A stretch of DNA of 10,091 nucleotides, from contig CAYJVT010000028.1 in assembly GCA_964373695.1 (NCBI GenBank), positions 1 to 10,091 of the forward strand, written 5' to 3'. The notes under the pieces are model-generated. The model had not been told where the DNA came from and did no database searches. It worked only from the letters and a program-made list of their open reading frames with translations. The position numbers and the translations under genes were made by a program. How positions within the stretch are numbered: position 1 is the stretch's first letter; each line of letters begins with the position of its first letter. Source of the DNA: an uncultured archaeon. Its GTDB lineage: Archaea; Aenigmatarchaeota; Aenigmatarchaeia; GW2011-AR5. This document shows, piece after piece, positions 3,247 to 9,856 of this stretch.

Positions 3247-5667
3247 TTAGCTGTTTTCTCTCGCCCGTTCTTCCGCAAATGCGATCTGCCTGTTTATTTC
3301 TCTCTTGATGCGCGATACCCTTTCGGAGGAGATTTCTGCAGAAGTCTCCGAAACGTCTATGGACCCGCTTCCGTCCTGCGAAACCAGCCTGACTCTGTAC
3401 TCAAACTCTTCGGGCTCGATTCTGCCATCATGGTCCCTGTCGTTGAATGAATATTCCTCGTATCTTGTGTAGGTTTTCGAGCCCTCGGTCGTTGTCCCGA
3501 TATTCCTTCTCATAGTAAAGCTGAATTCAAGTGTATTAGAATCCCCCCGACCGCCCTGCGGTATGTAATCTCCATACACCGTTCTTGACATTAAATCTAT
3601 TACAATAATTTCTTCAGTTCTATCGTAATTTGTTATCTCCCAGATTCCATCATAGCTCTGTGGCGTGGAGAACGTCACTTTATACACGCCCCTTTTCACT
3701 CTCTCGAAGAGGCCTCGGATGACAGGGCTTGTCAAGTTGTTTTCATAACTATTAAACTCGACCTCTTCAATCTTGACTCCATCGCCTTCCCTGAGCATGG
3801 ACTTGCATAAAGCTGTTCCATGGTCCATGAATACGCCGACGCTTCCAACATAGACTCCATCATCTCTGCTGTACTCCCTTCCTTCCCCTGGCCTTGAAGA
3901 ATAGTCATCCACCCGGCTGCATACGTAGCATGCACCGTCAGTACGCCTGAGACATGCGCTATCTGTCCACGAACCTGCGCTGCAAAGGGAGCCTTCTGAA
4001 CATCCCCGAAATTCCTGCCCCTTCGGGATTATGCCGTAATCGGTGTAATAAAATTCGTCAAAATTTCTCAGCGAGCCGTCATTTATCGAGGCGATTATCT
4101 GCTCGTCGTTTCCTTGGAGATGCCTTTCCGAATAGATGCGCTCGTCATTAGTATATTTTGCTGCCAGCTCGATAATCCTGCTTTTTTCGACTGCTCTTCG
4201 CATTCTAGGCAGCACTTCTCTTTCATAACGGGCGACCTCCTCTGTATTCAGCTGGCTCTCGCGCATCACTGCCCCTATGAAATTGCTTACAATGCCAGCA
4301 TCAGCGCGCACGCCGGTGTCGCATATGGTGGGGTCTATTATGTCCTGCCTTTCCTGAACCTGCATCCATATTCCGTCAGGCGTGCATGCGAAGCATTTGT
4401 TCCTGTCCTCGCCGTCTCCCATGCGGACGGAGTAGGCCGAGCTGCAGGCCTGTCCTCCCCTCGGTCTCAGTTCAGTTGCTCTTGAAATCGTCAAAGCCTG
4501 CGAAACAGTGGTGCAGAATCCGGAAGTCGCATCGCCAGACCATGTGCATCCGTGCACATCGCCGAGCGTCCTCATGTAGATTCCGTCGCTGCCCTGGCGG
4601 CGCCTGCAATACTCTATTTCAGCGTTGCCGCTCATGCAGTCGCAATAGCTTGAAATTGACAGGCAGTTGTTGGTGGTGTCATCATACATATAAGTCGACC
4701 GTATGGCGGCCACGTCGCTCCTGGTATAATATCTACCGGGAAACGTGCAATAGAGCGGGGAACTCACTCCCCCGGATGCCACGCAACCTTCCGGGCATCC
4801 CTCTTTCCATGCTATGGAATACATACCATCCATCGTGAAATCCCTTGTGAATCCGGGACAATAAGGCTCGTCCATGGAGCCAAAACTGGCCGTCTTGAGC
4901 CTCGCTGTTGGTGATATTGTCGATGGGCCGGAGTTGACGCATTGATTGCTTGCGTCATTCCAGTCGCATCGCAGCCCTTGATAATTTGAATTTCCGCAAT
5001 CATACAATGATGACATCTGGCTGCAGCCGTCAGAAACAGCAAGGCAGAAAGGGTTTTCAATGTCGTCTTTCCAGACGCATCGCACGCCGCTGCTCAATTC
5101 GGGGACCGCATCGCACGCCTCTTTTGTTCTCAACGAGGAGCATGAAGAGGTTGTGTTGAATCCGAACGTCTGTAGCTGCCACCTCCCGCATGAGAGCAAT
5201 GCGCCGTCGGCGCCGCTCTGCTCATTCAGGCATCCGCAGTACCACCTCTCGTTCTTCCACTGGCATGTGTATGCAAGAACGTAGTTGCCGCCGGAAAGAA
5301 GATTTCCAGCCTCCACCGGTATTTCAGCTATCACCTCGTTCGACGACCATCCGGGATATTCCGTGTTGTGGGGGAAGGTGAACTGCCGCCACTGCCTCGC
5401 CCTCGGGTTCCATATGTATCCTGTCGTCCATATGTATGTGCCGCTTGCCGTCACGATAGCTTTGCTGTCCTGGTAGCTGGCGCTGACAAGCGTCTCCCCT
5501 GTCTGGACATCCCACGGCACGGCAGCCCAGGACTGGGCCCATGAGGGCAATCCCTGCGATCGTGAAATCGCGTTGCCTTCCGCCACGAAGTCGGAGTATG
5601 ACGATAGAAAAAGCGTGACGGACAATAAAATAATTATTGCAGCAAGCTCTTTCCGAAAGAAATGCAT
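3247..5667 (-). CDS. Large secreted or surface Cys-rich multidomain protein; function unknown
   Basis: 806-aa ORF with an N-terminal hydrophobic signal/anchor followed by EGNAI, about 32 Cys (manual count) in paired patterns, and a DRDHDGRIEPEEF loop near the C-terminus. Confidence 0.85.
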   Translation of the reverse strand: MHFFRKELAAIIILLSVTLFLSSYSDFVAEGNAISRSQGLPSWAQSWAAVPWDVQTGETLVSASYQDSKAIVTASGTYIWTTGYIWNPRARQWRQFTFPHNTEYPGWSSNEVIAEIPVEAGNLLSGGNYVLAYTCQWKNERWYCGCLNEQSGADGALLSCGRWQLQTFGFNTTSSCSSLRTKEACDAVPELSSGVRCVWKDDIENPFCLAVSDGCSQMSSLYDCGNSNYQGLRCDWNDASNQCVNSGPSTISPTARLKTASFGSMDEPYCPGFTRDFTMDGMYSIAWKEGCPEGCVASGGVSSPLYCTFPGRYYTRSDVAAIRSTYMYDDTTNNCLSISSYCDCMSGNAEIEYCRRRQGSDGIYMRTLGDVHGCTWSGDATSGFCTTVSQALTISRATELRPRGGQACSSAYSVRMGDGEDRNKCFACTPDGIWMQVQERQDIIDPTICDTGVRADAGIVSNFIGAVMRESQLNTEEVARYEREVLPRMRRAVEKSRIIELAAKYTNDERIYSERHLQGNDEQIIASINDGSLRNFDEFYYTDYGIIPKGQEFRGCSEGSLCSAGSWTDSACLRRTDGACYVCSRVDDYSSRPGEGREYSRDDGVYVGSVGVFMDHGTALCKSMLREGDGVKIEEVEFNSYENNLTSPVIRGLFERVKRGVYKVTFSTPQSYDGIWEITNYDRTEEIIVIDLMSRTVYGDYIPQGGRGDSNTLEFSFTMRRNIGTTTEGSKTYTRYEEYSFNDRDHDGRIEPEEFEYRVRLVSQDGSGSIDVSETSAEISSERVSRIKREINRQIAFAEERARENS

Positions 5668-8037: not shown

Positions 8038-8045
8038 TATTTAAG
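8038..8045. promoter_or_regulatory. Candidate bidirectional TATA element between rnhB and the tRNA gene
   Basis: TATTTAAG on + (27 nt before tRNA position 1) and CTTAAATA on - (22 nt before the rnhB ATG). Confidence 0.5.
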
Positions 8046-8103
8046 AATTGCAGCAATAGACTATTTGATTATAGCGGGGTAGAGCAGCCTGGAGTGCTCG
8101 TCG

Positions 8104-8133
8104 AAATTGCATCTTTCTGGTGCATATACGAAT
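8104..8133 (+). other. tRNA intron 1, position 29/30, 30 nt
   Basis: BHB central helix TCGT(8098-8101)/ACGA(8128-8131), bulges CG|A and AT|G, inner hairpin TGCATC/GGTGCA. Confidence 0.85.
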
Positions 8134-8141
8134 GGCCCATA

Positions 8142-8155
8142 AGCTGTTCTAGGAC
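8142..8155 (+). other. tRNA intron 2, canonical position 37/38, 14 nt, relaxed BHB
   Basis: Central helix CCCA(8136-8139)/TAGG(8150-8153) with one C-A mismatch; bulges TA|A and AC|A. Confidence 0.8.
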
Positions 8156-8161
8156 ACCCGG

Positions 8162-8191
8162 AAGCAAGAACCACATATTCTTGCTGGGTAC
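8162..8191 (+). other. tRNA intron 3, position 43/44, 30 nt
   Basis: Central helix ACCC(8156-8159)/GGGT(8186-8189), bulges GG|A and AC|A, perfect 8-bp inner stem AGCAAGAA/TTCTTGCT. Confidence 0.88.
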
Positions 8192-8207
8192 AGGTCGTAG
8201 GTTCAAA

Positions 8208-8231
8208 TGTCTTTGCATCAAAGACTGAAAA
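8208..8231 (+). other. tRNA intron 4, T-loop position 59/60, 24 nt
   Basis: Strict BHB: outer GTAGG/CCTAC, central TTCA/TGAA, bulges AA|T and AA|T, inner stem GTCTTTG/CAAAGAC. Confidence 0.92.
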
Positions 8232-8242
8232 TCCTACCCCCG

Positions 8243-8368
8243 CTATTGTAATATTTTATCCAGTTTATTGTAATGCTTGGGGTTATTTGTTCCGACTGTT
8301 GCAAGCCATTTTCTCATCTGATTCTTTCCGTTTATTCTAAGTCTTATTTTACCCTTATCCAGCGCCTG
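8243..8368 (-). pseudogene. C-terminal remnant of a LAGLIDADG-like endonuclease domain
   Basis: QALDKGKIRLRINGKNQMRKWLATVGTNNPKHYNKLDKILQ* resembles the 'LRIxGKxxxxKWxxxIGxxNPKH' end of archaeal LAGLIDADG domains (from recall). No LAGLIDADG helix is present, and the 5' part abuts the palindromic element. Confidence 0.55.
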
Positions 8369-8369
8369 A

Positions 8370-8417
8370 ATTGTCAATGACCACCGCCTGAAGACGGTGG
8401 CTTGTCTGCAAAAGAGC
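8370..8417 (+). mobile_element. 48-bp palindromic element, copy 1; resembles an IS200/IS605-family (TnpB/IscB-type) subterminal hairpin end
   Basis: ATTGTCAATGACCACCGCCTGAAGACGGTGGCTTGTCTGCAAAAGAGC. The layout GTCAA..[stem]-CTRAAG-[stem]-GCTTG is typical of such ends (from recall). No transposase in the window. Confidence 0.6.
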
Positions 8418-8434
8418 AAAGCTCTTTTGAGATG
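8403..8434. repeat. Bulged triloop hairpin module
   Basis: TGTCT-G-CAAAAGAGC-AAA-GCTCTTTTG-AGATG. Confidence 0.85.
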
Positions 8435-8596
8435 CCAAAGACCTTTATGAGAAACCAACCTTTTATGTCAACAAATGAAGTATCGGAAGCCCTCTCTATG
8501 GGGTATGATACTACACTGAAGTATCTTATAGAACTGCATAAATCAAACAATATAAGTCTAAAAATGGTCGGCAATAGAAGGTTCTGGTACAAGTAA
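8432..8596 (+). CDS. Small winged helix-turn-helix protein, possibly N-terminally truncated (54 aa from ATG8432)
   Basis: MSTNEVSEALSMGYDTTLKYLIELHKSNNISLKMVGNRRFWY fits the HTH-plus-wing pattern of small archaeal wHTH proteins. The track's TTG8402 start lies inside the palindromic element. Confidence 0.65.
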   Translation: MPKTFMRNQPFMSTNEVSEALSMGYDTTLKYLIELHKSNNISLKMVGNRRFWYK

Positions 8597-8641: not shown

Positions 8642-9856
8642 ATGGATATCATGGAGAAAGCTTTCAAGATATTGAAGCAGCCCGTGTGCGACTCGTGCCT
8701 CGGCAGGCAGTATGCCCAGCTCCTGTCGGGATACTCGAACGAGGAGAGGGGCCGCGCCGTCAGGACTCTTGTAGCGATGCACATAGACAGGGCCGACGCG
8801 AAGCATGAAATGGACATGTCCAACTTCTCAGATTACGACTTCCACAGCCTGGAGATGCTGAAGCCTGCAGGGAAGAAATGCTCGGTATGCGACGGTCTTC
8901 TCGGGAATGTCGGCAAGCTGGCGAAAGGCATAGCAAGAAAAGCGTCCAGATACGATTTCAGGACGTTCCTAGTCGGCACGAAGCTGTCGTTTGATATCCT
9001 CAGCAGGGAGGAAGAGCTGTGGGAGCGCATAGGCGTGGACGACTGCGAACCGCTGAAGGCCGAGCTCAACAGGGAAGTCGGGAAGCGGCTGGAAAAGCTA
9101 ATGCCGGGGAAGAAATTCGACCCGAAGAAGCCGGATGTCAACTTCATAGTCGACCTGAACGACAACGCCACCGGGATATCGGTCAATCCTGTATTCATCT
9201 ACGGCGAGTACCAGAAGCTCGTGCGCGGCATACCGCAGACCAAGTGGCCATCTGGGAAGTACAAGAATAGCGTGGAGCAAATCATCGCGAAACCTTTCAT
9301 GAAGGCGTCGAAGGGCAAAATCCACAAGCTGCATGCACAGGGCCGCGAGGACATAGACGCCAGATGCCTGGCGTGGAGACCTTTCGTCCTGGAGATCACG
9401 GAGCCTAAGAACAGGACGTTCAAGCTGAAGTCCCTTGAGAAAAAGGTGGGGAAGGGCGTGAAAGTCAGGAACATGAGGCTCACGGACGTCGATGAAGTAA
9501 GGAAGTTGAAGGAAGCGAGGTCCGACAAGACGTACCAGGCAGTCGTGAAGTGCGAGAATCCTATTCAGAGAAAGGACCTTTCCAAGATTAAGCGCCTCAT
9601 AACCGAGATAAAGCAGAGGACGCCGCAGCGCGTCGCCCACAGGCGCAGCGACCTGCTGAGGAAGAGGAAGGTGAAGTCCATCAAGGCCAGGTATGTCGAC
9701 AAGAAGACGTTCATTATGACTGTCAGAGGCGAAGCAGGCCTCTATATTAAAGAACTCATAAACGGCGACTCGGGCCGGACGCAGCCATCGGTGTCGGAAA
9801 TCCTCGGCATGCCTTGCGTATGCAAGGAGCTTGACGTTGTCAATATCCACAAATAA
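8642..9856 (+). CDS. pus10: tRNA pseudouridine(54/55) synthase Pus10
   Basis: CDSCLGR N-terminus, ELNREVGK (THUMP-like region), YQKLVRGIPQTKW, catalytic GREDIDAR, KQRTPQRVAHRR, GLYIKELINGDSGRTQPS. Confidence 0.95.
   Translation: MDIMEKAFKILKQPVCDSCLGRQYAQLLSGYSNEERGRAVRTLVAMHIDRADAKHEMDMSNFSDYDFHSLEMLKPAGKKCSVCDGLLGNVGKLAKGIARKASRYDFRTFLVGTKLSFDILSREEELWERIGVDDCEPLKAELNREVGKRLEKLMPGKKFDPKKPDVNFIVDLNDNATGISVNPVFIYGEYQKLVRGIPQTKWPSGKYKNSVEQIIAKPFMKASKGKIHKLHAQGREDIDARCLAWRPFVLEITEPKNRTFKLKSLEKKVGKGVKVRNMRLTDVDEVRKLKEARSDKTYQAVVKCENPIQRKDLSKIKRLITEIKQRTPQRVAHRRSDLLRKRKVKSIKARYVDKKTFIMTVRGEAGLYIKELINGDSGRTQPSVSEILGMPCVCKELDVVNIHK

Follow-up and report, generated by a model that had tools for sequence, protein, structure and literature searches.

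The window, a 10,091-nt stretch of DNA from an uncultured archaeon of the Aenigmatarchaeota (DPANN), is contig 28 of a 1.02-Mb draft genome in 60 contigs with an estimated completeness of 91%. It carries genes for RNase HII, a class II aspartyl/asparaginyl-type tRNA synthetase, enolase, and archaeal Pus10, a tRNA pseudouridine synthase. Upstream of the Pus10 gene, on the same strand, lies a tRNA-Met(CAU) gene of 173 nt, of which 98 nt (30 + 14 + 30 + 24) are intron (Table 1). The protein relatives of this Pus10 are almost all labelled Candidatus Aenigmatarchaeota and mostly come from groundwater, the closest being 78% identical. The spacer between the tRNA and Pus10 genes holds a hairpin-rich repeat of ~76 nt, which is present in at least 20 genome copies, many of them at contig ends, and looks like a MITE. 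A short antisense ORF abuts the 3' end of the tRNA gene. It was considered as a LAGLIDADG relic, and this reading was rejected for want of Pfam support (best match GH3, E 0.12). Farther upstream, an 806-aa reverse-strand ORF matches no Pfam family except for a sub-threshold EF-hand match.

Table 1 Features of the initiator tRNA locus and other elements of the window. Fractions give the paired positions of the central helix; h and h' are the flanking helices.
Feature	Position	Strand	Size	tRNA site or content	Splice-site geometry or remarks
806-aa ORF	3247–5667	−	806 aa
TATA-box-like element TATTTAAGA	8038–8046	+		27–35 nt upstream of the mature 5' end	Putative archaeal promoter, read from the sequence
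Exon 1	8073–8103	+	31 nt	Acceptor 5' strand, D arm, anticodon stem positions 27–29
Intron 1	8104–8133	+	30 nt	29/30	TCGT/ACGA, 4/4; h 2 bp; h' 1 bp plus 6-bp hairpin; BHB
Exon 2	8134–8141	+	8 nt	G30–A37, with the CAU anticodon and C33
Intron 2	8142–8155	+	14 nt	37/38 (canonical)	CCCA/TAGG, 3/4 (C34·A mismatch); h 2 bp in the primary transcript, 5 bp after removal of intron 1; h' 1 bp; relaxed BHB
Exon 3	8156–8161	+	6 nt	A38–G43, anticodon stem 3' strand
Intron 3	8162–8191	+	30 nt	43/44	ACCC/GGGT, 4/4; h 0–1 bp; h' 8 bp; HBh'
Exon 4	8192–8207	+	16 nt	Variable loop, T stem 5' strand, T loop up to position 59
Intron 4	8208–8231	+	24 nt	59/60	TTCA/TGAA, 4/4; h 5 bp (the T stem); h' 7 bp; strict hBHBh'
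Exon 5	8232–8245	+	14 nt	U60, T stem 3' strand, acceptor 3' strand, discriminator A73
T-run	8254–8257	+		9 nt past the gene	Possible archaeal terminator
Antisense ORF	8243–8458	−	71 aa
Spacer repeat	8370–8446		~76 nt
Pus10 gene	8642–9856	+			Pfam Pus10_C and Pus10_THUMP_arc

Joining the five exons (31 + 8 + 6 + 16 + 14 nt) gives a 75-nt RNA that ARAGORN calls tRNA-Met(cat), with all 21 cloverleaf pairs formed. The spliced RNA has A1:U72, the discriminator A73, and G29-G30-G31 paired to C39-C40-C41, together with a normal D loop (GG) and a normal T loop (TTCAAAT). A1:U72 and three G:C pairs at 29–31:39–41 are marks of archaeal and eukaryotic initiators. CCA is absent from the encoded gene. The anticodon loop, CCCAUAA, has C33 where tRNAs near-universally have U33. 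Since C33 is present in 39 of 43 related genes (U33 in the other four), it reads as a trait of the lineage and not as damage. The initial annotation had described such a tRNA, with the same four introns and with internal exons of only 6 and 8 nt, and both the spliced product and the exon coordinates were borne out.

In the unspliced window, ARAGORN and Rfam (at gathering thresholds) both return nothing, and a tRNA-Thr call that ARAGORN makes on the raw window when introns are allowed is spurious. The expectation that standard annotation would overlook the gene thus stands in part, for these two finders. Group I and group II self-splicing introns are ruled out, as the window has no Rfam match at gathering thresholds and the introns are just 14–30 nt long. 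A split or permuted tRNA gene is likewise ruled out, because the five exons are collinear on one strand within 173 nt.

The splice sites were examined with a scripted BHB rule, in which exon bases −6 to −3 of the 5' site pair with intron bases −6 to −3 of the 3' site, and cleavage follows the second base of each 3-nt bulge. All four introns show the exact register, as the initial annotation had proposed, including the single mismatch in intron 2. Each has a 4-bp central helix between two 3-nt bulges, intron 2 in a relaxed form with three of the four pairs, and each has a flanking helix, h or h', of at least 2 bp. For introns 2, 3, and 4, alternative boundaries yield the identical mature sequence; these slid boundaries were rejected because the BHB is lost, and it forms only at the positions listed in Table 1. 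The spliced-alignment score is 116–122 at the gene versus 27–52 in 31 control loci without it, and the match of the gene together with the BHB geometry is far beyond chance.

Related genes were gathered by a DNA search of 60 relatives, from Pus10-linked loci, and with a spliced-alignment script. Three relatives that did not resolve were set aside (L016, at a contig end; L025, with an assembly gap containing N; and L037). Among 48 related loci, 17 have the initiator tRNA gene at most 1.5 kb upstream of Pus10, whose conserved downstream position ties together the tRNA genes of many relatives. In total, 43 distinct gene versions were recovered from Aenigmatarchaeota genomes, and every one yields, once spliced, a 75-nt RNA in which all 21 cloverleaf pairs form. 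Their spliced-alignment scores are 91–134, against 27–52 in loci without the gene. A1:U72 is present in all 43 and three G:C or C:G pairs at 29–31:39–41 in 38, and compensatory changes occur among the genes in the acceptor and T stems. Most of them are preceded, at the same spacing, by a TATA-like motif (TATTTAAGA, ATTTAAA, or TTTATAAA) that would be expected to act as a promoter, and T-rich tracts follow the 3' end of most.

The number of introns varies widely among these genes: nine have none, 14 have one, nine have two, six have three, four have four, and one has five. The 71 introns occupy about 11 sites (4/5, 14/15, 17/17a, 20a/21, 29/30, 37/38, 43/44 or 44/45, 47/48, 53/54, and 59/60). 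Their central helix has four of four pairs in 36 introns, three in 31, and two in four, so that 67 have at least three. Introns at the same four sites as in the window recur in one relative (L007, G027), while two others (L045 in G038 and L055 in DATDXH01) carry four introns each in other site combinations. The largest number is found in a genome of the same family (L003, G031:C60), whose 209-nt gene has five BHB introns, at 14/15, 29/30, 37/38, 43/44, and 59/60, and also splices to a 75-nt tRNA with all 21 cloverleaf pairs. A single genus holds both this five-intron gene and a gene without introns (L018, G014). Homologues of intron 1 are present in 15 of the 43 genes and an intron at 59/60 in nine. 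A 13–15-nt intron 2 occurs in eight relatives, in two of which the central helix (TGGG) is perfect. The intron at 37/38 is long in two other cases, 284 nt in L024 (G006:C8) and 106 nt in L015 (G049:C1), where the central helix pairs at four of four positions. ARAGORN recognises the intron-free versions, whose identity to the spliced product reaches 95%, as tRNA-Met but fails to find those with introns. Since ARAGORN and Rfam overlook the gene, genomes of this group would score as being without an initiator tRNA.

Covariation was analyzed in alignments of 11 copies of intron 1 and eight copies of intron 3, each with its exon flanks. For intron 1, 93% of the cells at the BHB pairs are paired, compared with 30–39% when the partners are slid, and all nine h' pairs have changed on both sides. 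For intron 3, 94% of the cells are paired versus 34–51% in the slid controls, and seven of eight h' pairs show compensatory change on both sides. No shuffle reached the observed covariation score for either intron. Such strong compensatory change argues that the helices of introns 1 and 3 are under selection, as expected of substrates of a splicing enzyme.

The genome encodes both a splicing endonuclease and an RNA ligase. A single EndA gene (G000:C2:46161-46742) specifies a 194-aa protein with N- and C-terminal EndA domains (PF01974 and PF02778); neither a second EndA paralogue nor a beta subunit was detected in the genome. Its best solved relative is the homotetrameric enzyme of M. jannaschii (PDB 1a79, E 2e-35), and by its sequence the protein is alpha4-like. 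Compared with the M. jannaschii enzyme, it has six extra residues, the Lys-rich KKGPKS, between the catalytic Tyr and His positions; in a gap-free alignment, their counterpart in the EndA alpha subunit of N. equitans (PDB 3iey) is KKGKRS. In DPANN, alpha4-type EndA bearing a Nanoarchaea/ARMAN-type loop has been reported to accompany the disruption of tRNA genes (Kaneta et al. 2018, PMC5829648), and the KKGPKS insert probably corresponds to the "L3" loop of that work. The present enzyme resembles those loop-bearing proteins in having both EndA domains and a Lys-rich insert, here with no beta subunit found. The ligase RtcB is encoded at G000:C31:6291-9113 (+) in one open frame of 989 aa. The RtcB Pfam profile is split near position 50 of this protein, which would be consistent with an intein of ~480 aa.

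We consider it very likely that 8073–8245 (+) is a functional initiator tRNA-Met(CAU) gene, apparently the only one of its genome, whose four BHB introns are removed by the single EndA. A precursor of ~173 nt would be transcribed with all four protein-spliced introns, EndA would cut each intron after the second base of both 3-nt bulges, and RtcB would join the exons into the 75-nt tRNA, to which CCA would be added later. Introns 1, 3, and 4 would leave first, and intron 2 would be presented afterwards, once the anticodon stem can form. This order would keep the 8-nt and 6-nt exons covalently tethered instead of released.

The order is suggested by the overlap of the motifs. The h helix of intron 1 uses G31 and C32, and the central helix of intron 3 uses A38–C41; the motif of intron 2 requires G30–A35 and A38–C41. 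Since the BHBs overlap, intron 2 cannot be presented alongside intron 1 or intron 3. Relative to the minimum free energy of the precursor, the modelled penalty is 1.5 kcal/mol for imposing the BHBs of introns 1, 3, and 4 together and ~12 kcal/mol for imposing that of intron 2 in the primary transcript. As a near-optimal fold can present introns 1, 3, and 4 at once, their removal probably precedes that of intron 2.

The gene may instead be real while one insert, most plausibly the 14-nt intron 2, leaves by something other than a simple BHB route, for example in another conformer that pairs with the D arm, or while the order differs from introns 1, 3, and 4 followed by 2. Intron 2 has only three central pairs and an h' of just 1 bp. 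Its nucleotides 2–10 (8143–8151) are complementary to D-arm positions 8–16 (8080–8088) over 9 bp, with a duplex energy of −13.7 kcal/mol, and in the last intermediate, where intron 2 alone is left, the nearest-neighbour model favours pairing of intron 2 with the D arm over the BHB by ~7 kcal/mol. Similar pairing runs through the class: all nine genes with a 13–15-nt intron at 37/38 give a D-arm duplex of −12 to −17 kcal/mol, six of them with a contiguous run of 9–10 bp, and all nine also carry the 29/30 intron. On the other hand, since ~5% of shuffles reach a run of such length, the complementarity is only a weak lead and may reflect chance or shared descent. Moreover, intron 2 sits at the canonical 37/38 site, the anticodon stem supplies a 5-bp h after removal of intron 1, and two relatives have the same intron with a perfect central helix. 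We therefore regard such a departure as improbable and retain the removal of all four introns by EndA at BHB motifs.

A second initiator-like gene was found neither by short-word BLAST nor by a spliced-alignment scan (introns up to 320 nt) of the 91%-complete genome, in which the next best score is 61, compared with 116–122 for the gene. The gene is apparently the sole initiator tRNA gene of the genome, a 60-contig draft whose unassembled DNA could hold a second copy. ARAGORN calls no other CAU tRNAs in the genome, owing to introns, and nearly every tRNA match exceeds the normal tRNA length, so that introns are the rule here. A working initiator tRNA would have to reside in the unassembled 9% if 8073–8245 were a decaying pseudogene or an insertion-riddled relic. 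The draft state of the genome and the gene of a same-genus genome, which is without these four introns, would agree with such a relic. However, the spliced product keeps 21 of 21 pairs and all initiator marks, every insert has a precise BHB, with covariation across genera in two of them, other genomes repeat this architecture, and conservation extends to the promoter-like box. Insertions at random would not leave BHB cut sites whose use yields a perfect tRNA, and we consider decay very improbable. A chimeric contig joining tRNA fragments, conceivable for a genome assembled from a metagenome, has next to no probability, as the exons are collinear on one strand, introns 1–3 are 75–84% identical to their counterparts in independently assembled relatives from other samples, and the flanking RNase HII and Pus10 genes are ordinary archaeal genes.

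The identity of 75–84% holds across intron-spanning stretches from different genera, and by this comparison introns 1–3 are homologous across genera. The same-genus genome (G002; L021/L049, JACPJX010000050.1) lacks all four introns, which are therefore not fixed in the lineage. Its gene is interrupted instead at 4/5, within the acceptor stem, by a 15-nt BHB intron with a 4/4 central helix and an h of 5 bp, and the spacer between the tRNA gene and Pus10 is 46 nt there versus 396 nt in the window. Another pair of relatives, L011 (G032) and L042/L064 (G017), have nearly identical Pus10 and a common 5' part of the tRNA gene, including the 14/15 intron, whereas their T stems, flanks, 3' halves, and remaining introns (29/30 and 37/38 versus 59/60) differ. 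This pattern is suggestive of recombination or replacement within the tRNA gene. A search for paralogues of the four introns elsewhere in the genome gave just 14–16-nt matches at chance level, and transposition within this genome is therefore rejected as the source of the introns. A Pus10 tree of 16 neighbours has weak deep forks and does not resolve the order of intron gains.

Taken further, these observations allow a tentative scheme that we hold to be possible but doubtful. The overlapping BHBs would constitute a built-in order programme, and intron 2 would act as an anti-D-stem guide that opens the D arm for the BHB of intron 1. The single alpha4-like EndA with its Nanoarchaeum-type insert would be enough for strict and relaxed motifs at any position. 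In DPANN, introns would be gained and lost rapidly at the initiator gene, a hot spot also of allele mosaicism, with zero versus five introns in one genus. Such a hot spot, if real, would imply an active and so far uncharacterised route of BHB intron entry and exit.

An initiator tRNA is essential and here apparently single-copy; if so, every protein of this archaeon depends on four accurate cut-and-join events that pass through 6-nt and 8-nt exons. The gene would then be a stringent natural test of the limits of BHB splicing. The series in neighbouring lineages, one gene with the same mature sequence and zero to five introns, is unusually clean; it can be used to study archaeal intron gain and loss and to ask if alpha4-type EndA with an extra loop is broad in its specificity.

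The initial annotation had given three introns as the archaeal maximum. This agrees with the peer-reviewed tRNAscan-SE 2.0 paper, which puts the number of introns in archaeal tRNA genes at up to three (PMC8450103), and the maximum is also three in the papers on Thermoproteales and C. merolae (PMC4090602, PMC3728597). It does not agree with a bioRxiv preprint of October 2026, in which a single Asgard tRNA gene is reported to have as many as five intervening sequences (10.64898/2026.10.13.758758), nor with the five-intron relative L003. The literature search returned no paper on tRNA introns in Aenigmatarchaeota and no use of "four introns" or "up to four introns" for one archaeal tRNA gene. The count of four exceeds the peer-reviewed record of three, but neither the newest preprint nor the relatives of the gene itself. 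The kind of gene is already known, and the main value of the locus lies in the zero-to-five-intron series and in the testable questions of splicing order and enzyme specificity.

The multi-intron tRNA genes of Thermoproteales, such as those of Pyrobaculum calidifontis (PMC8450103, PMC4090602), share with the present gene BHB introns at canonical and non-canonical sites that are removed by EndA. In both, some introns lie so close together that one must go before the next BHB can form, and standard tRNA finders struggle. Their published maximum is lower, at three introns per gene, than the four of the present gene and the five of a relative. They also belong to Crenarchaeota with an (alpha-beta)2 EndA, whereas this DPANN archaeon has a single alpha-type EndA, and they have transposed intron families, whereas paralogues of the four introns were not detected in this genome. 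In Asgard archaea (Valentin-Alvarado 2024, PMC11291895; 10.64898/2026.10.13.758758), introns break up nearly every tRNA gene, many of them at non-canonical sites, and many of these genes escape annotators. Repeated intron gain without visible transposing intron families is a further likeness. They belong to another superphylum and mostly have two EndA paralogues, against one found here, and the Asgard preprint does not mention the initiator tRNA. A parallel in splicing order is the tRNA-Ile(UAU) gene of Cyanidioschyzon merolae (PMC3728597), a eukaryotic nuclear gene with three BHB introns, in the D arm, at 37/38, and in the T loop. Its outer introns were shown experimentally, by RT-PCR, to leave before the one at 37/38, which is the same order as that proposed here for the initiator tRNA.
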